Source: Candidatus Woesearchaeota archaeon
GTDB lineage: Archaea; Nanobdellota; Nanobdellia; Woesearchaeales; JACJVV01
Assembly: GCA_047602755.1 (NCBI GenBank)
Contig: JBLKOM010000002.1
Coordinates: 56,272 to 120,271 of the forward strand
DNA length: 64,000 bases
Direction of reading: 5' to 3'
This document shows positions 3,923-54,315 of the stretch, piece by piece. Every line of letters begins with the position of its first letter. The first letter of the stretch is position 1. Position numbers and translations under genes: made by a program. The notes under the pieces are model-generated. The model was not told the DNA's origin. It made no database searches and saw only the letters and a program-made list of their open reading frames with translations.

Positions 3923-5437
3923 GTGTTGTCTATGGATTTTGTTAACAAAAAGAAAGAAATAATTAAATTTTTTTTAAATAATGATAGTCTTATTTCTCCA
4001 ACTGAAATTTCTTTTTTTGAAAAAGAAGAGAATGTTGATATTATCTATAGTATGCTAAAAAAAAATGTTTCGATTATTGATATTCAAAAAAAAATAAAGG
4101 AAATTGATATAGTTAATAATGAAAAAAATATAATTTTAAAAAAACAAGAAAATGAAATTAAAAAAAAAGCGAATGTAATTATAAAAAAATCATATGATTT
4201 AGTTTCTATGAAGCGCGATGTTGATCATTTTGTATCTTACTTTTTTTCTCGTTATAAACAAATTGAACAAATGTTAAGAAAAAGAAAAGAATTAGAGAAC
4301 ATATTATCTATTATACGTCTAAAATCTAAAAAAGATCGCGAAACTGTTGCTATAATTGGTCTTGTTCGTAATAAAGAAATAACAAGAAATGACAACATAA
4401 TATTAACATTAGAAGATCCTACAGGCGAAATAAAAGTATTAGCTAATAAAAATAATACTGAAATTTATAATTTTGCAAAAGAAATAGTAAATGATGAAAT
4501 AATAGGTGTTGTAGGAATAAATGGTGATAATATTTTATTTGCTAATAATATTATACAACCTGACATTCCTTTAGATAAGGAATTTAAAAAATATGATAAA
4601 GATGAATATGTTGTATTTTTATCTGATATTCATGTTGGGTCTAAGTATTTCCTTGAAGATGATTTTAATAAATTTATATCATGGATTCGTCAAGAAACAG
4701 GTTCTGAAAAACAAAAATCGATAGCAAAAAAAGTAACTCATGTTATTATTGCTGGTGATATAGTTGATGGGGTTGGTATATATCCAAATCAAGAAAAGGA
4801 ATTAACTATTTTAGATATTCATCAGCAATATGAAGAAGCTTTTAAGTATATAAGTAAAATACCTAAGCATATCAATGTAATCATATGTCCGGGTAATCAC
4901 GACGCAGTAAGGCTTTCTGAACCCCAACCTAAGTTAAATAAAAATTATGCTAAATCTTTATATGAATTAGAAAATGTTCTTATGGTTTCTAATCCTGCTG
5001 TAATAAATATCTGCTCTAATCAAGATTTTTCAGGTTTTGATATTTTATTGTATCATGGTTACAGTTTTGATTATTATGTAGCCAATGTAGACTCGTTAAG
5101 ATTAAGTGGAGGATATGACTGCCCAGATTTAATAATGAAATTTCTTCTTAAACGCCGTCATTTGGCACCTTCTTATACCTCCACATTATTTATTCCAGAA
5201 ATCACTAATGATGCACTAGTTATCGAAGATATTCCTGATTTTTTTATAACTGGCCATATCCATAAAACAGCAGTATCAAATTATAGAAATATAACATTAA
5301 TTTGTGGTAGTTGTTGGCAACGAACAACATCTTTTCAAATAAAAGTAGGACATCATCCAGAACCATCACGTGTTCCTGTAGTTAATTTAAGAACTAGAAA
5401 AGTAACAATTTTAAATTTTGGAAGTACTGAAGAATAA
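3923..5437 (+). CDS. DNA polymerase II (PolD) small subunit DP1, a calcineurin-like phosphodiesterase
   Basis: 504 aa with metallophosphoesterase motifs (DIHVGS, GDIVDG, GNHD) and an OB-like N-terminal region. It is followed immediately by the large subunit. Confidence 0.85.
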   Translation: MLSMDFVNKKKEIIKFFLNNDSLISPTEISFFEKEENVDIIYSMLKKNVSIIDIQKKIKEIDIVNNEKNIILKKQENEIKKKANVIIKKSYDLVSMKRDVDHFVSYFFSRYKQIEQMLRKRKELENILSIIRLKSKKDRETVAIIGLVRNKEITRNDNIILTLEDPTGEIKVLANKNNTEIYNFAKEIVNDEIIGVVGINGDNILFANNIIQPDIPLDKEFKKYDKDEYVVFLSDIHVGSKYFLEDDFNKFISWIRQETGSEKQKSIAKKVTHVIIAGDIVDGVGIYPNQEKELTILDIHQQYEEAFKYISKIPKHINVIICPGNHDAVRLSEPQPKLNKNYAKSLYELENVLMVSNPAVINICSNQDFSGFDILLYHGYSFDYYVANVDSLRLSGGYDCPDLIMKFLLKRRHLAPSYTSTLFIPEITNDALVIEDIPDFFITGHIHKTAVSNYRNITLICGSCWQRTTSFQIKVGHHPEPSRVPVVNLRTRKVTILNFGSTEE

Positions 5438-11552: not shown

Positions 11553-12191
11553 TTATTCTAATACTTTAACCTTGCCAGGCGATATTTCAAAGATTTCTCC
11601 TTTTAGCAAAAGCTTTTCAATAGTAGCATCTGGATTATCAATATATTTACTTAATTCACTTACAAAACACCCATCTCCTTTATCCAATTCTTTTATTTTC
11701 AATATTATTGTATCCATTATATCTAGTTCAGGTTCAACTTCGTTTATCTCACTTTTTTTTTCATCTATAGAAGTTATAATGCTTGGATTATTTTTTTGTT
11801 TTAAAGATATTTGTTTTTTCCTATATTCTAACCAACCTTTATTTTCTATTTTCCTTACTATCTCTGCATTGATATAGATTTCATCATTATACTCTCTAGG
11901 TCTACCAATTATCAATACTATATCTCCTATGGTATAATTACTAAAACTAGGTCCATCTTCAAAACTTCTTACTTCAATTTTATTTGAGCCATCATCAATA
12001 AACATTGAATTTACTTTTTCTGGTACAGTGACTACAATCCCTAATATATTTACTCTTGAAATTTTTTCATTAGAAGTAGTTAATACATAATTTGGTTCCC
12101 AACCTTCTTGTTTATAATATTTTCCTTCGACTATTTCTTTTATTGACGCAATTTTCGCAGTTTGTCTCTCAGGTTTTTGTTCAGTTTCCAT
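11553..12191 (-). CDS. RPA32/Stn1-like ssDNA-binding protein candidate (OB fold plus C-terminal winged helix)
   Basis: 212 aa. The central OB-fold signature is RVNILGIVVTV...MFIDDGSNKIEVRSF...IGDIVLIIGRP...IYINAEIV. The C-terminus is wH-like (CFVSELSKYIDNPDATIEKLLLKGEIFEISPGKV). It lies immediately downstream of MCM. Confidence 0.5.
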   Translation of the reverse strand: METEQKPERQTAKIASIKEIVEGKYYKQEGWEPNYVLTTSNEKISRVNILGIVVTVPEKVNSMFIDDGSNKIEVRSFEDGPSFSNYTIGDIVLIIGRPREYNDEIYINAEIVRKIENKGWLEYRKKQISLKQKNNPSIITSIDEKKSEINEVEPELDIMDTIILKIKELDKGDGCFVSELSKYIDNPDATIEKLLLKGEIFEISPGKVKVLE

Positions 12192-15153: not shown

Positions 15154-16068
15154 TTATGCTTGGACTTTTTTAGCATCTTTAAATGCTTTTTCTGTTTCAT
15201 TATATGCCATTTCTTCATATGAAATAAGTACTTTAACAGATAAAACAATTTCATCTAATATCTTTGTTTTTCGATGCAATTTTTTTGCTATTTTTTTTAC
15301 GATATCTTGTTCAACAGCAGTCTTATCAGAATGTGATTTTGCAAATTTTATTATATTTAAATTTAAATGTGATATCTCTCTACAACGCATTCTTGTTTCT
15401 TGGAGTTCATGCAATATCTTTTTCTCAATTGTCATTATTTTTTCAAGCTCTAATTCTTCTTCTCGTATCTCTCTGTCCTGATATTTAGCAGCTTTCTTTT
15501 GTGTTTTACTTAAGCCGCCTTCAGCTTTTAGTTCTCGTTCAAATGAATCAAAACTATGAATATCACGATGTAATAATCTATCTTCTTTAGTAACAAATTC
15601 AAGAATACGTTCACTTATATTTTCAGGTTTTAGTAATAATTTCCAAATTTGGTCAATTAATTCATTTTCTTCTAAACATATCTTTTCAATTTCTCCTGAT
15701 TGAGGAATACCTACTCCTGTTTTTTCAATATGCTCTCTTCTTTCTCTTCGTAATAATTTTTCAATGAATGGAACTATTTTTATTTTTTCTAATTTAATTT
15801 TATGTTCTAACTCACTTATCTTATGCATAATTTCATATGAAATTTTTTGTTCTTGTTTTTCTACATATTCAATTTTAGGAATAGTTTCGATTAATTTTGC
15901 TTCTTCTTTCATTATGTTTTCTCTTTCTTCTTCCATTCGTCTTTCATACTTAATTCTATTTTTCTCTGCATGTCTTCCATGTCCTCTTCTAATAAACTTC
16001 CATGTTAGAAATAAAATTAAGACAACTAATACTAAATCTGCAATTCCAATTATACTTTCGATATCCAT
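15154..16068 (-). CDS. N-terminally anchored, highly charged coiled-coil protein (hypothetical)
   Basis: 304 aa with one N-terminal TM helix, then E/K/R-rich heptad-like sequence throughout. The start is 5 bp downstream of the preceding membrane-protein gene, so they are probably co-transcribed. Confidence 0.4.
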   Translation of the reverse strand: MDIESIIGIADLVLVVLILFLTWKFIRRGHGRHAEKNRIKYERRMEEERENIMKEEAKLIETIPKIEYVEKQEQKISYEIMHKISELEHKIKLEKIKIVPFIEKLLRRERREHIEKTGVGIPQSGEIEKICLEENELIDQIWKLLLKPENISERILEFVTKEDRLLHRDIHSFDSFERELKAEGGLSKTQKKAAKYQDREIREEELELEKIMTIEKKILHELQETRMRCREISHLNLNIIKFAKSHSDKTAVEQDIVKKIAKKLHRKTKILDEIVLSVKVLISYEEMAYNETEKAFKDAKKVQA

Positions 16069-21244: not shown

Positions 21245-21913
21245 ATGAAAAAAGTAATTATCACAGGTGGAAGCAGTGGATTGGGATACTCTTTATCTAA
21301 ATTATTTCTAGAAAACGATATTAAAGTTGTAAATTTATCAAGAACCAAGCCAAATTTAAAAGGGATCATTCATATAAAAACAGATTTATCAAAAGAATTA
21401 AGCCTAAAGAATTCTATAAGAATATTAAAATTAAAACATAGTGATGCCGATGTCTTAATATTAAATTCAGGTCTTGCTCATTGGGCTGAATCTGGCAAAA
21501 TAAAAGAATCTGAAATAGATAATGATTTTTCTGTTAATATTATTTCTCATATTAAACTTACCAATTCCTTAACTCGAATAATTGAAAAAAATTCAGGAGA
21601 CATAATTTTCATAGGCTCAACAGCATCTTTTCAAGGTGGTTTTGATAGTTCTGTTTATGCTTCAACAAAACATGCAGTATTAGGATTTATCCGTTCTTTA
21701 CAACTCCAAATGAAACAAAAAAAAGTAAGAGTTCTAGGAGTTCATCCTGGAGGTTTTCAATCAAATTTTCACATTAAAGCTAAAACTAATTTAAAACAAG
21801 AAGATTTAATGCCTGCAAATGAGATTGCAAATTTAATTTTTTCATTCCTAAAATTACCTAAATCAATGGAAATTTCTGAAATAATTATAAATAGAAAAAA
21901 ATTAGTGAATTAA
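21245..21913 (+). CDS. Short-chain dehydrogenase/reductase (SDR)
   Basis: 222 aa with an N-terminal TGGSSGLG Rossmann motif and a YxxxK-like active site (YASTK). Confidence 0.75.
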   Translation: MKKVIITGGSSGLGYSLSKLFLENDIKVVNLSRTKPNLKGIIHIKTDLSKELSLKNSIRILKLKHSDADVLILNSGLAHWAESGKIKESEIDNDFSVNIISHIKLTNSLTRIIEKNSGDIIFIGSTASFQGGFDSSVYASTKHAVLGFIRSLQLQMKQKKVRVLGVHPGGFQSNFHIKAKTNLKQEDLMPANEIANLIFSFLKLPKSMEISEIIINRKKLVN

Positions 21914-21922
21914 AACATAGAT

Positions 21923-22140
21923 CACACATGATGCAATGAAGATGTGAACACCATGAGAGGCGAAAGCCAATGACCGCAAAGAGTAACTTCTGAGCATGTG
22001 AATTGATCTTTAGAACAATAATTTTTTAAATATTTTTCTTGGTTTATTTCGCTATGCTTTATGCATAGCTTAAATGCTAGTATGTATAGCGTGCACTCGC
22101 TTACAGATGTAACCTATGAGCATGTGAATTGATCTATTGA
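21923..22140. ncRNA. Candidate small structured RNA locus (GC-enriched intergenic island, possibly C/D-box-like sRNA)
   Basis: Convergent-gene intergenic region that is much more GC-rich than its surroundings. A 19-nt perfect direct repeat, tgagcatgtgaattgatct, occurs at 21991-22009 and 22117-22135. A second repeated motif, agatgt(g)aac(a)c(c/t)atgag, occurs at about 21941 and 22105. There is a GNRA-type hairpin ggc-gaaa-gcc (21958-21967) and a perfect hairpin gctatgc-tttat-gcatagc (22051-22069). ATGATGC (21928-21934) and CTGA (21990-21993) are spaced about 60 nt apart, like C and D boxes. Strand and ends are unknown. Confidence 0.25.
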
Positions 22141-22171
22141 AATCTTATATTTAATTTTAAGAATAAGAATA

Positions 22172-22978
22172 TTATCTTATATATTGTTTCATAGTTTTAA
22201 TAATCTCTTGAGTAGAAACTTTACAACCAGTCCATATTCTAAAACTTTCTGCCGCTTGTTCAACAAGCATTCCTAATCCATCAATTGATTTTTTAGCTTT
22301 ATTTTGTTCACTCCAAGTACAGAATTTTGTGCGACTATATGAATATGCTAAGTCATAACATAAACTCCCTTCAACTACTTCACTATTTATTCCAGGTAAT
22401 TCGTCATTAAGACTAGTAGGTGTAGCATTAACAACTAAATCATAATCTTTACCTAAGTTATGAATATCATGAACTGTAACTATATCTGATCCAATTCTTC
22501 TAGCAAAATCACTTAAACGTGCTATATTTCTATTTGTTATAACTATTTGCTCAGGATTTTGTTGAATCAATGAAGTTACTATACTCCTCGCAGAACCACC
22601 AGCCCCAATTATTAAAATTCTTTTATTTTCTGAATAAAAATCATTATTCTCTAAATCTTTGACAAAGCCTTTACCATCTGTAGTATAACCTATTATTTTA
22701 CTATCAAAGTGAATGGTATTAACACTATTAGCTTTTTTAGCATCTTCACTTAATATGTCACAGTATTCAAAAGCTTCTTCTTTGAAAGGAATAGTAACAT
22801 TTAATCCATCATAATTTTCTCTTTTTAATTCATTTGCATAACTTTTAAAATCATGAGCAGGGATTTTTGTATATACTAATTTAATTCCAGTTTGTTTTGC
22901 AAATAATTCAAATATCTCAGGAGATCTACTATGGCTAATGGGGTTTCCTATCACAGCAAATTTATAATTATTATTCAT
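22172..22978 (-). CDS. aroE: Shikimate dehydrogenase
   Basis: 268 aa with an N-terminal shikimate-binding region (VIGNPISHSRSP) and an NADP Rossmann motif (ILIIGAGGSARS). Confidence 0.8.
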   Translation of the reverse strand: MNNNYKFAVIGNPISHSRSPEIFELFAKQTGIKLVYTKIPAHDFKSYANELKRENYDGLNVTIPFKEEAFEYCDILSEDAKKANSVNTIHFDSKIIGYTTDGKGFVKDLENNDFYSENKRILIIGAGGSARSIVTSLIQQNPEQIVITNRNIARLSDFARRIGSDIVTVHDIHNLGKDYDLVVNATPTSLNDELPGINSEVVEGSLCYDLAYSYSRTKFCTWSEQNKAKKSIDGLGMLVEQAAESFRIWTGCKVSTQEIIKTMKQYIR

Positions 22979-25518: not shown

Positions 25519-26550
25519 CTAAATATTAATAACAGATAAATCCTTAAATATTATTTCTTTTTGTTCTTTTGCTTTTTTACTTAATTCGCCATTTGTTACG
25601 AGTAATGAAGGTAGTTTATTATGTTGTCCTTCAATTAGTGATAATGCAAGTTCACTCTCTGTTATTCTTTTTTTATCTATAATTCTGCAATAATATTTAG
25701 ATTCACCTATACTTGATGGAACACTTGTTATTAAAGAATACTCTTTATTCTTTTTAATTTGTTCATAGCGTATTATTTTTATATTTTTATTACTAAAATA
25801 TTCAATTACTTTCTTTCCAAAATTTGTTTTGCATATGGTTAAAAACTCTTGATTTTTATCACTTATTTCACTATTATTAAAATCAGTTATCTTTGAATCT
25901 GATTTTATAATTTTAGTTTTATTTTTGAGATCTTCATTCTTTGTTTTGGTTACGTTATCAATTTTCTGTTTATTTTCATTTAATGCTTCTTGTTTTTCTT
26001 GTACTTCTTGTTTTTTTACTTCTTCTTTAATTTCATTCTTTTGCTCTTTGTCAACACTCGTATTTATCTCATTATTTTGTCTATTATTATTAATTTCACC
26101 GATATTTTCACTTTCAAAAATACTTTTTATTATTTGCTCAGCTTCTTTATCACTTAAAAGATACCACTTCCAAAATATTTCTTTATTATTATTTCTAATA
26201 ATATTTAATGGAACAGCAAAATCTTTTATTGCTCTAAGAGAGATTCTTGTTATTGGTGTTTGTTTAGAATCCCTTAATACTTTTTTTTCTTTTAATAAAT
26301 CATATGCTTGCCTATCTTTAGAATTAAGATTATTTGCAAAATTCTGTAGTTTTTCTTGATCTTCAATAAGATAATATAATGGAGAACCTCCTCCTATTTT
26401 TAAAGCACTTATTTTAATTTTTTTAGTTGAAGATAATTCTCCTAACATTGCTGATGCGAATAATTGTGTAATTCCCATAAATTTACCAAACTGAGCAGGA
26501 GTACTCGGACCATTCTGTTTTAGAAAAGATATTATTTGTTGTTCTGACAT
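25519..26550 (-). CDS. Hypothetical protein: two N-terminal winged-helix-like modules, K/E/N-rich linker, C-terminal globular domain
   Basis: 343 aa. Residues 1-65 look like a MarR/TrmB-type wH (IISFLKQNGPSTPAQFGKFMGITQLFASAMLGEL...KIKIS) and residues 80-130 form a second wH-like segment. It then has about 80 aa of KEEVKKQEVQEKQ low complexity and a C-terminal roughly 110-aa domain with no recognised motif. It sits between the endA operon and fen1 on the same strand. Confidence 0.35.
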   Translation of the reverse strand: MSEQQIISFLKQNGPSTPAQFGKFMGITQLFASAMLGELSSTKKIKISALKIGGGSPLYYLIEDQEKLQNFANNLNSKDRQAYDLLKEKKVLRDSKQTPITRISLRAIKDFAVPLNIIRNNNKEIFWKWYLLSDKEAEQIIKSIFESENIGEINNNRQNNEINTSVDKEQKNEIKEEVKKQEVQEKQEALNENKQKIDNVTKTKNEDLKNKTKIIKSDSKITDFNNSEISDKNQEFLTICKTNFGKKVIEYFSNKNIKIIRYEQIKKNKEYSLITSVPSSIGESKYYCRIIDKKRITESELALSLIEGQHNKLPSLLVTNGELSKKAKEQKEIIFKDLSVINI

Positions 26551-26618: not shown

Positions 26619-27113
26619 TTATTTATTTGCAAATCCTTGATCTGTAGCACTAAATGATTCACCTAGCTCTAATGATAATTTCTCTAGTTCTTCTGGCAAT
26701 ACTAATTTTCCGTCTTTAACATCATATTCTGTAGCCAATGCAGCAAGAAGATCAAGATTATAATTTATTGGATCATTCATTTGTTTATAATTAACAAAAA
26801 ATTGTAATTTATTAAAATTAGCATTATTTTTAATTATTGTCGGAAAATTAAATTTAAATTTTGTTACAATCTCTTCTTTAGTTGAATAATTATTTATTAA
26901 TATTTTTAAATCATCTTTTGTAAAATCTTCATTTTCTAATGTTATTTCTATTGCAGGATATTTAATATTAAAATCTTGTATGAATTTATTGAATGCAGGC
27001 CACGCTTTTTCTAAATTATCATTATCATGTGAATACATATCAATAAATTTTAAGAATATCTTAACTAGTACTTTTATGTTTTTTTTAAATTCATTAATTA
27101 AGGCCTGATCCAT
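26619..27113 (-). CDS. Hypothetical protein co-transcribed with tRNA-splicing endonuclease
   Basis: 164 aa with no recognisable motif. Its start overlaps the endA stop by 16 nt on the same strand. Confidence 0.35.
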   Translation of the reverse strand: MDQALINEFKKNIKVLVKIFLKFIDMYSHDNDNLEKAWPAFNKFIQDFNIKYPAIEITLENEDFTKDDLKILINNYSTKEEIVTKFKFNFPTIIKNNANFNKLQFFVNYKQMNDPINYNLDLLAALATEYDVKDGKLVLPEELEKLSLELGESFSATDQGFANK

Positions 27114-27703
27114 TTTATTTCATAGTATGTTACTGAATTTTCCTCATCAACAACACCAATTAATAATCTTTTTTTTGTTGAATGCGCTACACGATTTTTA
27201 GCAGCAAATCCATACCATGTCAACGAATCTGTTTCTTTTACTGGATAAATAATCCATCTAGCATGATCCTCTCCTGGTTTTACTCCTTTGTCATACACTC
27301 TAAAATCAGCACCAAATTTTAATGCTGTCTTGATGATGTAACCTCTATTTCTAAAATCATTAAAAACTACATATCTTATCCAGAAATTTTTTTCAAGCTT
27401 TATGCATTTTCTTAAAAATTCATCTAATTTTAATATTTTTTTATTTTGTATAAGTATTATTTTTTCTTTTTCTAAAAGATAATATCCTTCAATAAGTGTC
27501 AATTGGACTCTTCCATCATCTAAAAGTGTACCATATCTTGACTTTTCATATAGATTTCTAGCTTCATTAGAACATTCAGTTATTATGCTATCTCTTAAGA
27601 AAAATGCTTCTATCTTATCATTTTTTTTCCTTGCTTCTCCAACTTTTTCTTTACTTTTACTATCTTTTTTATTAGAAGTTTTCTTTTTAGGCATTTTATT
27701 CAA
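27098..27703 (-). CDS. endA: tRNA-splicing endonuclease (EndA)
   Basis: 201 aa with the catalytic-domain signature RNRGYIIKTALKFGADFRVY...DHARWIIYPV...K. It has a K-rich N-terminal extension. Confidence 0.85.
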   Translation of the reverse strand: MNKMPKKKTSNKKDSKSKEKVGEARKKNDKIEAFFLRDSIITECSNEARNLYEKSRYGTLLDDGRVQLTLIEGYYLLEKEKIILIQNKKILKLDEFLRKCIKLEKNFWIRYVVFNDFRNRGYIIKTALKFGADFRVYDKGVKPGEDHARWIIYPVKETDSLTWYGFAAKNRVAHSTKKRLLIGVVDEENSVTYYEIKWIRP

Positions 27704-30780: not shown

Positions 30781-31080
30781 ATAGGGGGATGAGTTAGCTT
30801 TCGGTAAACTGAGGAAAGTCCACCCACTAAGTTAGGTTGCTTATCGTAAGATAAGTTCCAGAAATGGAAGGCAACCGCCCAGAAACGTACTGCCTTATTT
30901 AATGGAATGAAAACTGTAAAATAATGGTGACATTATATAAACAGTCGACGTCAATAAGGTAAGTTGAAACGGCGAGCCCCTGCCAGTGCAACTCATATGA
31001 GGCTAAGTTAAATGCTAGCAAGGATGATCAGCATTAATGTGCAAAAAGCATCCTACAGAAGGTGGCTTATCACTCCCTAT
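30781..31080 (+). ncRNA. rnpB: RNase P RNA (archaeal type)
   Basis: GC-enriched about 300-nt region. It contains the universally conserved P4/CR-I sequence GAGGAAAGTCCacc and CR-V ACAGAAggtGGCTTAtc. The 5' atagggg can pair with the 3' ccctat (P1). No ORF is present. Confidence 0.85.
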
Positions 31081-31107
31081 ATTTTTTATGTTTAATAAGA
31101 GAAAAAA

Positions 31108-39925: not shown

Positions 39926-41929
39926 TTATCCTTTATAATTGCTATGTAAACTAGCTATAAGATCCACAGCAGATCTCATTTTTTTTATTTTCTCTAAAGA
40001 AAAAATATTGTGATAATTCTCCTCAATGATTTGTTGTGCAAAAATGGCATTACTAATAAAAGAATCACGTAAATGTTGAGTCCCTTTTTTATCTTTTGAA
40101 AAGCTACAATATCCAAATGCTTTAACTGAAACTGATGCATAATAATGAGCATATATCAATTCTGGTTCTAAGTTAAAACCATTTAACTTGGCAAATCTAT
40201 CAATCCATCTATTCCTAGTCCCAAAATCCTCTTCATTTCTTTCAAGTAAATCTTGTGATTCAAGTAATCTTACAAGCATATATATTGGGTCAGAATTAGG
40301 TCTAGCTTCATGATCGATAAAATAAATTCTTCCTTTTAAAATCAAATCATTTCTTATTACAGGTTTTTTTGTTATTATAAAATTATTTGGATTAGCATCA
40401 ACATCATAAACTTGTTGAAAGTGAGTAGCAAGTGTTAAACATTCACTTAAACCATCATATAATATTTGTTTTTGTGATGGATTAAAATTATCACAACTTG
40501 AAATATATTTTTTTATCATATCATCAAGATTAGTGTTGCTATTATTAATTCCATATCTAGATATGTGAGTTAACCCAGTTATAATACTATCAAAAATAGT
40601 TTCCTTTTGCCCTTCAAATTTTTCTTTATCACTTTTACTCATTAAAAGTTCTAACAATTCCTTTAAATTACATCCATTCTCATAATCAAAGCAAATTAAT
40701 ACTTCATCATCAAGTGTACTTACTTTTTTATTATCTAAAACAGCAACTATCTCAGGAAACCTCCATTCAAAAAAATTATCACCTGTGATTTTATGCTCAT
40801 CAAATAGTTTAATTAAGTGTCTAGTTTGCCTTATTTCAAGTTCTGCGTCTATACTTTTTTTTCTTTTTAAAATTAATTGATTTGTTATATATCCAAAATC
40901 AATAGTATAGGTTTTATTATTTGTTTCTAATGTTGTCAAAAATTGTTCAGGGTTCCTTTGAAGATTATTAAAAGCTTGGCATAAGTATTCTTCACGCTGT
41001 TCTTGTGTTGCAGCTGTCTCAAACCTAAAAAAGAAGCTTTCTAATTCTAATCCTCTTTGTTCAATCTCTTCAATCCAAAAATCCATTTTTTCTGGATAAA
41101 AAAACATTACGTCTTGTAAATTTTTTAGTATATTTGTTAGATCTGGTTGTTCAAATGCTTGATGTGTAATTCTTAAATTTTTTACAAGTGATTTGTAAAA
41201 AAACGAAAAAAAGTTTTTTTCATATTTAGTTAAACGTCTATTCTCTTTTGCAAGTTCTGCACATAAATCTATTATTACATCTATATCTGTTTCATTATGT
41301 ATTTTATAATTTATATCAAAAATATTTGCCAATCTATATATGGGTTGTTTATAATCACCTTTTGCCAAGTATTTATCTAGTTTTTTGAGTGATGATTTTT
41401 GATAGTATTTTATACTTAAATACCAACCAGCACTCAATCCTGCTGCATATACACCTATAAGGTTTTGATGTTCTAAATTAACTTTATTAGCATTATAAAT
41501 CATAATTGCTGGAGGTGCTACTTGAATAGTCCTATAAACTAAATTCTCTAATAAGCTTAATTCTATTTTAAAAGGATTTTTTTTATTGTAAAAATAGTAT
41601 GCACCAAAAAGTACTAATGCAATTATGTTCATACCATATGTAAAATTTTGATATCTTCTTGAAAGATCAGAAAATGTAACAATTTCATCATTTTCATCAA
41701 TATAATAAATTGCAAAATTATTAAATCTTGGAACTTTTGCATCAGGGGATCTTCTATATACTTCTCTTTCTATTGCAGTCTCTCTTACTAATTTAGTTTG
41801 ATTTACTACATGGTTATATTCAATTAAACCAATAATTAAGGTACCTGTAAATATTGAGAAATTAAAGATTTGTCTAGAATAATATGAAAAATATTTTTTA
41901 CTTTTATCTATTATCTCTGTTAGTTTCAA
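39926..41929 (-). CDS. Large hypothetical membrane-anchored protein (667 aa)
   Basis: About 4 TM helices in the first 190 aa, then roughly 470 aa of soluble domain with no recognised catalytic signature. Its start overlaps the upstream THUMP gene by 26 nt on the same strand. Confidence 0.4.
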   Translation of the reverse strand: MKLTEIIDKSKKYFSYYSRQIFNFSIFTGTLIIGLIEYNHVVNQTKLVRETAIEREVYRRSPDAKVPRFNNFAIYYIDENDEIVTFSDLSRRYQNFTYGMNIIALVLFGAYYFYNKKNPFKIELSLLENLVYRTIQVAPPAIMIYNANKVNLEHQNLIGVYAAGLSAGWYLSIKYYQKSSLKKLDKYLAKGDYKQPIYRLANIFDINYKIHNETDIDVIIDLCAELAKENRRLTKYEKNFFSFFYKSLVKNLRITHQAFEQPDLTNILKNLQDVMFFYPEKMDFWIEEIEQRGLELESFFFRFETAATQEQREEYLCQAFNNLQRNPEQFLTTLETNNKTYTIDFGYITNQLILKRKKSIDAELEIRQTRHLIKLFDEHKITGDNFFEWRFPEIVAVLDNKKVSTLDDEVLICFDYENGCNLKELLELLMSKSDKEKFEGQKETIFDSIITGLTHISRYGINNSNTNLDDMIKKYISSCDNFNPSQKQILYDGLSECLTLATHFQQVYDVDANPNNFIITKKPVIRNDLILKGRIYFIDHEARPNSDPIYMLVRLLESQDLLERNEEDFGTRNRWIDRFAKLNGFNLEPELIYAHYYASVSVKAFGYCSFSKDKKGTQHLRDSFISNAIFAQQIIEENYHNIFSLEKIKKMRSAVDLIASLHSNYKG

Positions 41930-54158: not shown

Positions 54159-54275
54159 TATGGACGGTCATAGCGGATTGGTCCTACCTGGTCTCATTTC
54201 GAACCCAGAAGTAAAACAATCCTGCGTTTTCCTGCGTACTGTTCTTACGAACGGGAGATGGAATTCGCTGTCCTC
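54159..54275 (+). rRNA. rrf: 5S ribosomal RNA (stand-alone copy)
   Basis: tggacggtcatagcgg...cctggtctcatttcgaacccagaagtaaaac...gcgtactg...gggagatgg...gctgtcc. The universally conserved 5S blocks (GGUCAUAGCGG, GGUCUCAUUUCGAACCC.GAAGU, GUACUG) are present. The 5' ggacgg can pair with the 3' ctgtcc (helix I). No 16S or 23S is nearby. Confidence 0.85.
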
Positions 54276-54315
54276 TTTTCTTTGTATTTACTAAAAAATA
54301 TGTAATCTAGAAAAA

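Follow-up and report, generated by a model that had tools for sequence, protein, structure and literature searches.

The forward-strand interval 21919-22009 of the 64-kb window (the whole stretch of DNA analysed here), referred to as unit a, is supported by conservation and covariation as a box C/D sRNA gene of a Woesearchaeota (DPANN) archaeon. RNAs of this type guide the ribose methylation of rRNA. The original prediction of an undescribed RNA element was therefore set aside, as this class of RNA is long known. We assign a probability of roughly 60% to the whole account, in which the sRNA would be processed into a putative circle by EndA and RtcB, would guide methylation at two sites, and is followed by a decayed downstream paralogue. 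All sequence features listed in that prediction were found in place. Its suggestion of a C/D-box sRNA held for the identity of the core, whereas its assignment of the boxes did not.

Locus and anatomy of unit a

Unit a lies between convergent genes, 6 nt past a stop codon. The upstream gene encodes an SDR in the window and PheRS-beta in relatives, and the proteins flanking the spacer were 100% identical to Woesearchaeota MAG proteins. An RNase P RNA of archaeal type was found within the window, while no tRNA was detected by ARAGORN or Rfam in the window or the related loci. As predicted, no ORF of at least 40 aa fitted the stretch 21923-22140; the largest, of 31 aa (minus strand) and 23 aa, were attributed to chance. 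The 31-aa frame was rejected because 2-nt differences in hairpin length among orthologues would shift it. A gene on the minus strand was also dismissed, as that strand contains no C/D boxes and only this chance ORF.

The GC enrichment claimed for the spacer as a whole was found in unit a, which has 42.9% GC compared with 26.7% across the window; a content of at least 41% is reached by only 0.6% of the 91-nt windows in the 64 kb. The stretch 21923-22140 has 35.8% GC overall, and the spacer separating unit a from the second unit has 14.6%. The 19-nt perfect repeat TGAGCATGTGAATTGATCT was verified at 21991-22009 and 22117-22135, with exactly two copies in the window and no third at up to 3 mismatches; none of 100 shuffles gave two or more matches. 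The repeat could be extended to 44 nt at 80% identity. A dispersed repeat, raised earlier as an alternative, was ruled out, since the 19-mer had no match in 185,579 species genomes and none elsewhere in the window. The 20-mer CAAAGAGTAACTTCTGAGCA was found only at two genome loci and two metagenome loci; one metagenome match (L010) lay in unrelated sequence and was ascribed to chance.

The features of unit a and its surroundings, all on the forward strand, are as follows.

21885..21893 (+): TATA-box-like element TTATAAATA, read from sequence, within the 3' end of the upstream SDR gene
21919..21934 (+): 5' BHB half; AGAUCA 21919-24, CACA 21925-28, bulge UGA 21929-31, UGC 21932-34
21936..21942 (+): C box AUGAAGA; RUGANGA kept in 11 members
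21943..21954 (+): D' guide UGUGAACACCAU, 12 nt; GUGAACACCAU invariant in 8 orthologues
21955..21958 (+): D' box GAGA, mostly UAGA in relatives
21959..21968 (+): GGC-GAAA-GCC hairpin closing the C'/D' K-turn; stem covaries
21970..21976 (+): C' box AUGACCG; UGAC invariant in 11/11 members
21977..21989 (+): D guide CAAAGAGUAACUU, 13 nt; box-proximal 9 nt GAGUAACUU invariant, distal 4 nt variable
21990..21993 (+): D box CUGA; CUGA or CCGA in every member
21994..22009 (+): 3' BHB half; GCA, UGUG, bulge AAU 22001-03, UGAUCU; inside the first 19-mer copy
22022..22027 (+): T6 run after unit a, candidate archaeal terminator, read from sequence
22025-32 (+): second TATA-like element TTTAAATA, overlapping the T6 run

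Eight distinct orthologues, from the window and seven related metagenomic lineages, were found in the convergent spacer between PheRS-beta and Trm5, showing that the RNA is kept at a syntenic position. GUGAACACCAU and GAGUAACUU-CUGA-GCAUGUG were invariant across them. In two lineages, L012 and L009, three units (a, b and c) stand in tandem that share this architecture but not their guides, and in L012 the entire cluster is inverted. A strict pattern and a covariance model identified members at the unit a locus only, in ~160 kb, and a simple C/D scan of the window returned this locus as the sole intergenic candidate. No family member was found in the more distant L137 and L138 (PheRS-beta ~61% identical), where the synteny is different.

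Analysis of the relatives revealed compensatory changes in both K-turns. With the paralogues added, 91.9% of cells were paired and 7 pairs showed double changes; the covariation score was reached by none of 500 shuffles, and slid controls were all well lower. The covarying positions were D'1-C'6, C5-D2, the hairpin stem and positions of the outer helix (AU/UA/GC).

The C box departs from RUGAUGA at position 5 only, which covaries with D-box position 2 (AU:7, GC:2, GU:1). In the C/D K-turn, AAU (21935-37) is the loop and G38-A39 form the sheared pairs; the two boxes flank a UGC/GCA stem, and UGA..GA together with the D-box GA is invariant in 11 members. The motif ATGATGC (21928-34), previously taken as the C box, is unconserved in relatives (AAGATGC, ATTATGC) and was therefore rejected in that role; it runs across the 5' bulge and the inner helix of the BHB motif, and the real C box is the AUGAAGA at 21936-42. 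The internal D' (GAGA) and C' (AUGACCG) boxes flanking the GAAA hairpin had gone unrecognised. Family-wide these read NAGA and RUGACM, with invariant GA dinucleotides that make a second K-turn possible, and D' position 1 covaries with C' position 6 as Watson-Crick pairs (UA:8, GC:3).

Both hairpins described earlier, GGC-GAAA-GCC (21959-68) and GCTATGC-TTTAT-GCATAGC (22051-69), were present. The stem of the first, which varies as GGC/GCC, GGA/UCC and GCC/GGC, has 2-3 bp in a and c units, where the D'-C' linker consists of a 9-11 nt hairpin plus a loop nucleotide. Its loop is a GNRA in the a units and in L012 c, and UAGC in L009 c. In b units the short hairpin is replaced by a 26-27 nt insert. 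Unit a has guide spacers of 12 and 13 nt, the family-wide ranges being 12-13 and 13-15 nt; it measures 58 nt from box to box, within a precursor of 91 nt.

Unit a resembles the archaeal box C/D sRNAs of Pyrococcus, Sulfolobus, Methanocaldococcus and Nanoarchaeum in box order (C, D', C', D), in its conserved tandem G.A K-turn signatures, in guides of 12-13 nt that are best conserved over ~9-11 nt beside D/D', and in being a small gene right behind a protein gene, such genes sometimes being clustered or polycistronic. Archaeal sRNAs typically have a D'-C' spacer of 3-9 nt forming a K-loop, and a total length of ~50-70 nt. Unit a lacks this short K-loop linker, its D'-C' spacer being at least 10 nt long, and instead has an intact C'/D' K-turn closed by a hairpin. 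It also differs in that the canonical U.U pair (C5/D2) is a covarying A-U/G-C, in its D' NAGA and C' RUGACM boxes, in termini that form a canonical BHB, and in its host, a mesophilic-looking DPANN lineage of 27% GC.

The MFE of unit a alone was unremarkable (z = -0.63), as expected for a guide RNA; MFE z-scores were weak, and for such RNAs they are uninformative. Rfam searches at gathering and permissive thresholds gave no family at threshold, and otherwise snoRNA/miRNA noise; the best sub-threshold scores were for SNORD18 (E=8.7, 15 bits vs threshold 41) and, with the L013 orthologue, SNORD58 (E=0.57, 17 bits vs threshold 42). This is expected for a lineage-specific guide.

The BHB motif and predicted processing

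The termini of unit a form a 3-4-3 BHB, in which the 4-bp helix CACA/UGUG lies between 3-nt opposite-strand bulges at 21929-31 and 22001-03. The cacatg/catgtg pairing had been noted before as the terminal pairing of an sRNA; the pairing was borne out, whereas its meaning was not, as it is the central helix of the BHB. Flanking helices are present on both sides, and the strand arrangement is that of tRNA introns, as reportedly described by Marck and Grosjean (2003). RNAalifold recovered the helices and bulges unaided. The outer helix, of 4-6 bp, covaries among orthologues and paralogues, while the central helix and the inner helix (UGC/GCA) give no covariation because they never vary. The L013 orthologue has an extra bulged A, and the L009 b paralogue has no BHB.

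BHB motifs are cleaved by EndA, and a gene for this enzyme lies 5 kb from unit a.

27098..27703 (-): tRNA-splicing endonuclease gene EndA, 201 aa; PF01974 (6e-27) and PF02778 (2.6e-13)

The protein has both N-terminal and catalytic domains. Fibrillarin, Nop5, L7Ae and RtcB were not found among the 47 window ORFs scanned.

A precursor may be transcribed from its own promoter or by read-through out of the upstream gene. The TATA-like element TTATAAATA would set the transcription start ~2-5 nt ahead of the outer helix, and relatives have comparable A/T boxes 28-34 nt 5' of this helix. Since the genome is AT-rich, the promoter is considered putative. T6-T7 runs also follow unit a in L003, L005 and L011. 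The endonuclease encoded nearby would cut the precursor in both bulges, and the ~72-nt product (about 21931-22002) would be closed into a circle by RtcB, with an expected back-splice junction of ...GCAUGUGA(A)|(A)UGCAAUGAAG..., likewise ...CUGAGCAUGUGA(A)|(A)UGCAAUGAAGAUG.... We infer excision through the tRNA-splicing pathway, probably with circularisation. The circle would then join L7Ae, Nop5 and fibrillarin and direct 2'-O-methylation at two sites.

The bulged terminal stem could instead have a stabilising or assembly role only, as in the terminal stems of eukaryotic snoRNAs, with the sRNA being linear, trimmed by exonucleases and no endonuclease substrate. BHB-like geometries do arise frequently by chance (~490 matches in 64 kb, both strands, G-U allowed), the central and inner helices are invariant in sequence rather than covarying, and L009 unit b manages without such a stem. 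However, 10 of the 12 family members retain the exact 3-nt opposite-strand bulges on either side of a 4-bp helix, even though the bulge letters vary (UGA/AGA/UUA/AUA/UAA and AAU/AAC/UAU/AAA/AGA/AUU) and the outer helices of the paralogues are wholly different (AGAUCA, UUCA, GAACA, GCCA). A stem that merely stabilised the RNA would need neither the bulge length nor the register to be preserved. The strand arrangement shared with tRNA introns and the proximity of the EndA gene point the same way, so that a purely stabilising stem seems somewhat unlikely.

Release of a guide RNA at a BHB has precedent. In Euryarchaeota (Haloferax, Pyrococcus), the splicing endonuclease frees the sRNA of the pre-tRNA-Trp intron, and RtcB closes it into a circle (PMC7714728, PMC9014305). 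This C/D sRNA is, like unit a, a BHB-bounded guide RNA. Unit a differs in having no tRNA exons, its flanks being a few nt of leader and trailer, in occurring in up to three BHB-bounded tandem units, and in having no obvious target in a host RNA. The pre-16S/23S stems and the permuted Thermoproteus SRP RNA are excised at BHBs and circularised by EndA plus RtcB (PMC4731332; PMC7994747), and resemble unit a as non-tRNA RNAs with flanks paired into a BHB. Here, in contrast, the cargo would be a 72-nt guide RNA whose function needs no permutation, and circularisation would therefore serve end definition or stability. If circularisation of unit a holds, a covalently closed circle would be shared with the circular C/D sRNAs of P. 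furiosus, M. kandleri, N. equitans and T. kodakarensis. The termini of those hyperthermophile RNAs have no BHB and their junctions are heterogeneous, and in T. kodakarensis circularisation is RtcB-independent, through the ATP-dependent ligase Rnl (PMC7994747, PMC9014305, PMC3695527). According to reviews, the termini of archaeal C/D sRNAs usually form no BHB (PMC7994747).

The downstream paralogue, element 2

The two repeat units had been regarded as equivalent copies. This was not the case, as the second is truncated and box-degenerate: judged from its alignment, element 2 (22044-22136) is a guide-poor, decayed tandem paralogue of unit a. The 19-base repeat exists because this decayed copy ends in an exact unit-a 3' BHB half.

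22051..22069 (+): hairpin 1, GCUAUGC-UUUAU-GCAUAGC; 5/7 predicted pairs compensatory, in 4 species
22070..22082 (+): conserved linker UUAAAUGCUAGUA, from alignments and comparison with L012 unit b
22083..22105 (+): hairpin 2, UGUAUAGCG-UGCACU-CGCUUACA; compensatory changes in L003 (CCUUUAGAG/CUCUAAGGG)
22106..22135 (+): tail with C'-like GAUGUAA, D-guide stub, degenerate D box AUGA and exact 3' BHB half

In element 2 the 5' BHB half and the K-turn GA dinucleotides are missing, as is almost the whole of the guide sequence. What it shares with unit a is limited to a D-like box, the tail of the D guide and the 3' BHB half (GCA-UGUG-AAU-UGAUCU); the second 19-mer copy occupies 22117-22135. The family covariance model gave a weak match to 22047-22138 (13.7 bits, E=1.6). 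In L012 the homologue of hairpin 1 separates unit a from unit b, and the linker UUAAAUGCUAGUA appears to be a remnant of the inner-helix strand and C-box region, from which the CACA strand and K-turn GA are gone. Element 2 stands where the related three-gene clusters have a second sRNA.

In total, 8 of the 15 hairpin pairs of element 2 showed compensatory changes, and this covariation indicates that something maintains the hairpins. A possible internal U.G pair in hairpin 2 of L003 weakly favours the forward strand. In each species the 3' end of element 2 agrees with that of the unit a of the same species, down to the variable bulge (AAU in the window, UAU in L003, AAA in L005/L011); this exact half may have come about by tandem duplication or concerted evolution. 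In L005 element 2 occurs twice in tandem, the copies being perfect; the L011 repeat runs on into the trailer. The element is absent from the L002, L013 and L014 loci.

Other identities for element 2 were rejected: an H/ACA RNA, as there is no pocket plus ACA; a K-turn RNA or tRNA half, as there are no GA pairs or tRNA features; and a minus-strand transcript, as forward-strand T-runs follow element 2 in L005 and L011.

The repeated 3' half might itself be functional, with the 5' half at 21919-34 pairing with 22120-35 so that read-through transcripts give a ~200-nt excised or circular RNA containing both the sRNA and element 2. Its identity to the unit-a 3' half in every species having element 2, a fold of 21914-22142 in which the distal 3' half is the partner of the 5' half, and the covarying hairpins would all be consistent with this. 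Recent tandem duplication or unequal crossing-over explains the identity equally well, however, and the interval from unit a to element 2 contains T6-T7 runs, which act as terminators in archaea. Moreover, the L003 copy has G for U in its central helix strand (GCAGGUG), and three lineages do without the element altogether. We regard a functional second half as quite improbable.

Binding of L7Ae to mRNA K-turns has been reported (PMC5539422). It is hardly credible that the locus is no RNA gene at all, but a region terminating the convergent genes, a REP-like or otherwise dispersed repeat, or a regulatory K-turn bound by L7Ae in the 3' UTR of the upstream mRNA: the position between convergent genes just past a stop codon would suit this, as would the hairpins and T-runs, but the 19-mer is not dispersed, position and sequence are kept despite a differing upstream gene and the inverted cluster in L012, and two symmetric K-turns with 12-13-nt invariant spacers specifically mark a methylation guide rather than a terminator.

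Implications and candidate targets

How archaeal sRNAs gain defined ends and circularity has been described as unclear outside Thermococcales. A conserved, BHB-bracketed sRNA family beside endA offers a testable second route to such ends and circles, with the same chemistry as for tRNA introns and pre-rRNA. If processed in this way, BHB-bounded sRNAs would extend the substrates of the splicing endonuclease by a new class. A bolder reading, which we think unlikely, would have the guides of this clade as host-less introns, that is, tandem BHB cassettes circularised via EndA and RtcB, with the 19-mer half-sites as alternative 3' splice sites. Were this true, the guides would represent a living intermediate, with intron-encoded guides on one side and independently encoded ones on the other, and alternative splice sites would yield larger circles carrying the two-hairpin element 2. 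The pathway of this reading, EndA and RtcB, contrasts with the Rnl route known from Thermococcales.

No sRNA literature on the Woesearchaeota/DPANN host lineage was found, and to our knowledge ribosome biogenesis in Woesearchaeota/DPANN is essentially unstudied. The present candidates would give this group its first concrete sRNA genes and predicted sites of rRNA methylation. Such sRNAs are missed by standard scanners (Rfam, canonical C/D patterns), and the variant K-turn rules found here, with A-U/G-C in place of U.U and a hairpin-closed C'/D', could be used to find more.

In the proposed account, unit a would direct methylation at two sites, for which 23S domain V is the likeliest place, with U2552 (D' guide) and U2438 (D guide) as leads; the predicted target complements are 5'-AUGGUGUUCAC-3' and 5'-AAGUUACUC-3'. 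The modified nucleotide (N+5) is the one paired with the fifth guide position upstream of D or D', in a guide-target duplex of at least 9 bp. The complementarity was assessed against E. coli and Halomicrobium rRNA as proxies for that of the host, and scores were no better than those of shuffled guides. No guide target was found within the window, 5S rRNA and RNase P RNA included. DPANN 23S sequences were sought in viral contigs with SRL, PTC and H73 patterns and the predicted targets, giving 0 useful matches; the bare SRL pattern gave 120 loci, mostly irrelevant.

The best lead, as a candidate, is U2552 in the 23S A-loop. The sole top match of the D' guide in Halomicrobium 23S placed N+5 on E. 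coli U2552 (0/400 shuffles), with a pairing score of 8.5/11 that was not significant in this proxy rRNA from another lineage. In five archaeal species U2552 is among the positions that sRNAs are predicted to target (PMC4644070). An arrangement with the D' guides of both units a and b as A-loop guides was tried; the two cannot fit one sequence without mismatches, and this was left as a lead. For the D guide, the top match in both E. coli and Halomicrobium 23S placed N+5 at U2438, and was weak. The D guide of the c unit matched CGUUUUGA in archaeal 23S perfectly (7/300 shuffles).

A predicted guide RNA gene in the GC-rich spacer

Re-reading of the sequence at 21900-22140 bore out the description in the original prediction, including the lack of a fitting ORF: none longer than 31 aa was found to overlap the spacer. 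GC content in unit a, the predicted sRNA gene, was 42.9%, as against 26.7% window-wide; at least 41% is attained by 0.6% of 91-nt windows. As the host is an archaeon, a box C/D sRNA was a natural candidate for the spacer. When all 64 kb were scanned for simple C/D patterns, six candidates emerged, of which unit a was the only one outside ORFs. At gathering thresholds, Rfam identified archaeal RNase P RNA (30781-31082) and 5S rRNA (54160-54276) in the window. Two neighbouring proteins, shikimate dehydrogenase and PheRS-beta, match those of a Candidatus Woesearchaeota archaeon MAG at 100% identity. We assign a probability of about 0.9 to unit a being a conserved box C/D methylation-guide sRNA gene.

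Predicted features of unit a (21919-22009, + strand)
21919-24 (+), outer helix, 5' strand, AGAUCA
21925-28 (+), central helix, 5' strand, CACA
21929-31 (+), 5' bulge, UGA
21932-34 (+), inner helix, 5' strand, UGC
21935-37 (+), K-turn loop, AAU
21936-42 (+), C box, AUGAAGA
21943-54 (+), D' guide, 12 nt, UGUGAACACCAU
21955-58 (+), D' box, GAGA
21959-68 (+), hairpin, GGC-GAAA-GCC
21970-76 (+), C' box, AUGACCG
21977-89 (+), D guide, 13 nt, CAAAGAGUAACUU
21990-93 (+), D box, CUGA
21994-96 (+), inner helix, 3' strand, GCA
21997-22000 (+), central helix, 3' strand, UGUG
22001-03 (+), 3' bulge, AAU
22004-09 (+), outer helix, 3' strand, UGAUCU

Seven other lineages yielded syntenic loci (L numbers denote relatives' loci), reached via PheRS-beta homologues, 63-74% identical. 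In these relatives, PheRS-alpha/beta are convergent with Trm5/TYW2 and FEN1, and the sRNA occupies that spacer in every locus. Only in the window are an SDR gene (21245-21913, +) and a shikimate dehydrogenase gene (22172-22978, -) inserted on either side of the sRNA, which has kept its position despite both insertions. The closest non-self matches to the shikimate dehydrogenase were only 46% identical, and the named matches (at most 44%) were bacterial (for example Vibrio, Parasutterella and Gammaproteobacteria), which suggests horizontal acquisition. In L013, the PheRS-beta stop is separated from the sRNA by a segment of higher GC content (4655-4735, +) in which CUGGU/ACCAG motifs recur; it folds moderately well (z = -1.9), has no Rfam match and was not seen in the other loci.

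Across eight orthologues, GUGAACACCAU in the D' guide and GAGUAACUU-CUGA-GCAUGUG were invariant, while variation fell in the hairpin, in the bulges and in the four D-guide nucleotides farthest from the box, as would be expected of a guide RNA. An exact 20-mer from the D guide, searched in 185,579 species genomes and JGI metagenomes, matched clade members and, by chance, one other sequence only. The L008 record (CAZOOV010000005.1), titled "uncultured Methanosarcinales archaeon", shows no apparent difference from the Woesearchaeota-like L003 locus in the 550 nt displayed, PheRS-beta synteny included, and is probably a taxonomically mislabelled MAG.

RNAalifold, applied to the orthologues, returned unprompted a helix, 3-nt bulge, 4-bp helix, 3-nt bulge and helix. 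With the full proposed structure, 91.9% of cells in an 11-member alignment were paired, compared with 14-45% with slid partners. Both-sided changes occurred in seven pairs, a number reached by 3/500 shuffles, and the covariation score was reached by 0/500. Position 1 of D' covaried with position 6 of C' (UA in eight, GC in three), and position 5 of C with position 2 of D (AU in seven, GC in two, GU in one, and one canonical U.U). As such pairs occupy the Watson-Crick positions of two K-turns, the C/D identification is strong. Also informative were the stem variants GGC/GCC, GGA/UCC and GCC/GGC in the hairpin, and AGAUCA/UGAUCU, UGAUCA/UGAUCA, UUCA/UGAA, GAACA/UGUUC and GCCA/UGGC in the outer helix. 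Conservation and K-turn covariation therefore support the class first proposed, a C/D-box sRNA, though ATGATGC (21928-34) is not the C box; this string runs across the 5' bulge into the inner helix, and reads AAGATGC or ATTATGC in orthologues.

Tandem units and the probable origin of the repeat

Three tandem units (a, b and c) of common architecture, with different guides, occur at L012 4132-4449 (-) and L009 1322-1564 (-). The D' and D guides are UAGAAGAACAU and GUAGAACCUU in unit b, and UUUGACUGCGGU and UCAAAACG in unit c. In L012 the entire cluster is inverted relative to PheRS-beta, and the D box of units b and c is CCGA, compensated by a G as the fifth C-box nucleotide. Searches of about 160 kb with a strict family pattern, and with a covariance model from the 11 members, matched at the sRNA locus only, and neither matched in two remoter relatives whose synteny differs.

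The 19-mer TGAGCATGTGAATTGATCT occurs twice in the window, at 21991-22009 and 22117-22135, with no third copy at up to three mismatches; two matches arose in 0/100 shuffles. Extended, the repeat covers 44 nt at 80% identity. Its second copy lies in element 2 (about 22044-22136), which is conserved in four species (the window, L003, L005 and L011) and forms two hairpins with compensatory change in 8/15 pairs. Hairpin 1 is homologous to the hairpin that separates units a and b in L012; the sequence after it aligns with unit b minus the CACA strand (CUU[CACACA]UUAUGC becoming CUUAAAUGC). The C box has lost its GA (UAGUA), the D box is degraded (AUGA in the window, CUAA in L003; CUGA in L011 only), and nearly all guide sequence is gone. 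The family covariance model gave element 2 only 13.7 bits (E = 1.6). Element 2 is quite probably a degenerate tandem paralogue of the sRNA, which would explain the repeat.

Since the 3' end of element 2 exactly copies its own species' unit-a 3' BHB (bulge-helix-bulge) half, species-specific bulge included (AAU, UAU, AAA), the 19-mer repeat appears to be a trace that tandem duplication or concerted evolution has left in a cluster of sRNA genes. The L011 copy also includes 40 nt of trailer, and L005 carries element 2 in two perfect tandem copies with a 99-nt period (11758-11955). L011 (4751-4925) begins a third, partial copy. The locus appears to evolve by unequal crossing-over between GUGAAAUGAUCU-plus-trailer repeats. 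The spare 3' half-site might serve as an alternative site of excision. Eleven nucleotides (UUAAAUGCUAG) of the linker in element 2, CUUAAAUGCUAGUA, recur identically in an RNase P RNA segment conserved in 4/4 genomes examined (window 31007-31020; L002 20136-49; L003 19070-83; L005 18012-25), which may reflect chance in AT-rich sequence or a common protein or RNA contact.

Candidate guide targets

Guides were compared with rRNA from E. coli rrnH and the Halomicrobium mukohataei plasmid operon, proxies from outside the host lineage, and pairing scores were no better than those of shuffled guides. The single top match of the unit a D' guide in Halomicrobium 23S placed N+5, the target nucleotide paired to the fifth position upstream of the box, at E. 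coli U2552, where the A-loop begins; 0/400 shuffles did so. For five archaeal species, sRNA targeting of U2552 has been predicted (PMC4644070). In each of the two proxies, the top match of the unit a D guide put N+5 at U2438 (expected by chance in 10%), and the unit c D guide perfectly matched CGUUUUGA(AA), with N+5 near E. coli position 566 (7/300 shuffles). These positional coincidences are suggestive, and the three sites are leads rather than assignments.

The BHB bracket and possible processing

The sRNA termini form a canonical hBHBh' motif, with the 5'-site bulge separating the central helix from the inner one and the 3'-site bulge separating it from the outer one. This is the strand arrangement of tRNA introns, reportedly set out by Marck and Grosjean in 2003. 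The motif was intact in 10/12 units, with bulges constant at 3 nt and variable in letters; L013 has an extra A and L009 unit b no BHB. The central and inner helices are invariant and so yield no covariation. In single AT-rich sequences, chance often produces BHB-like geometries (234 + 257 matches in the window), and the case consequently rests on comparative conservation.

The window encodes a splicing endonuclease:
27098-27703, EndA, 201 aa, N-terminal and catalytic domains

ORFs at 39926-41929 (-, 667 aa), 25519-26550 (-, 343 aa), 26619-27113 (-, 164 aa) and 15154-16068 (-, 304 aa) had no Pfam match; most syntenic relatives (L002, L003) have conserved homologues of the 343- and 164-aa ORFs between FEN1 and EndA. 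Neither ARAGORN nor Rfam found tRNA genes in the 64-kb window and about 96 kb of related loci, which may simply reflect low density, or atypical (intron-rich or split) DPANN tRNAs missed by both.

EndA is known to act on tRNAs, rRNAs, a few mRNAs and Thermoproteus SRP RNA (PMC7714728). In T. kodakarensis, C/D sRNA circularisation requires the ATP-dependent ligase Rnl, and the BHB/RtcB ligase route serves the tRNA-Trp intron and rRNA (PMC9014305). The literature searched held no description of free-standing BHB-flanked sRNA genes, or of any Woesearchaeota sRNA. Cuts inside both bulges would release roughly 72 nt of RNA (about 21931-22002), which RtcB could circularise. On the strength of the conserved bracket, we somewhat favour the view that the splicing endonuclease acts on the sRNA, which may also be circular. 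The locus thereby makes it possible to test directly, in a DPANN lineage, how circular and end-defined guide RNAs of archaea arise.

A TATA-like TTATAAATA lies at 21885-93, 34 nt ahead of the outer helix, with comparable boxes 28-34 nt upstream in relatives, and several species have T6-T7 runs after unit a. In so AT-rich a genome these are weak evidence for a dedicated promoter and terminator. The sRNA starts 6 nt after the SDR stop codon, and it is equally possible that it is co-transcribed with the upstream gene and then freed via the BHB.
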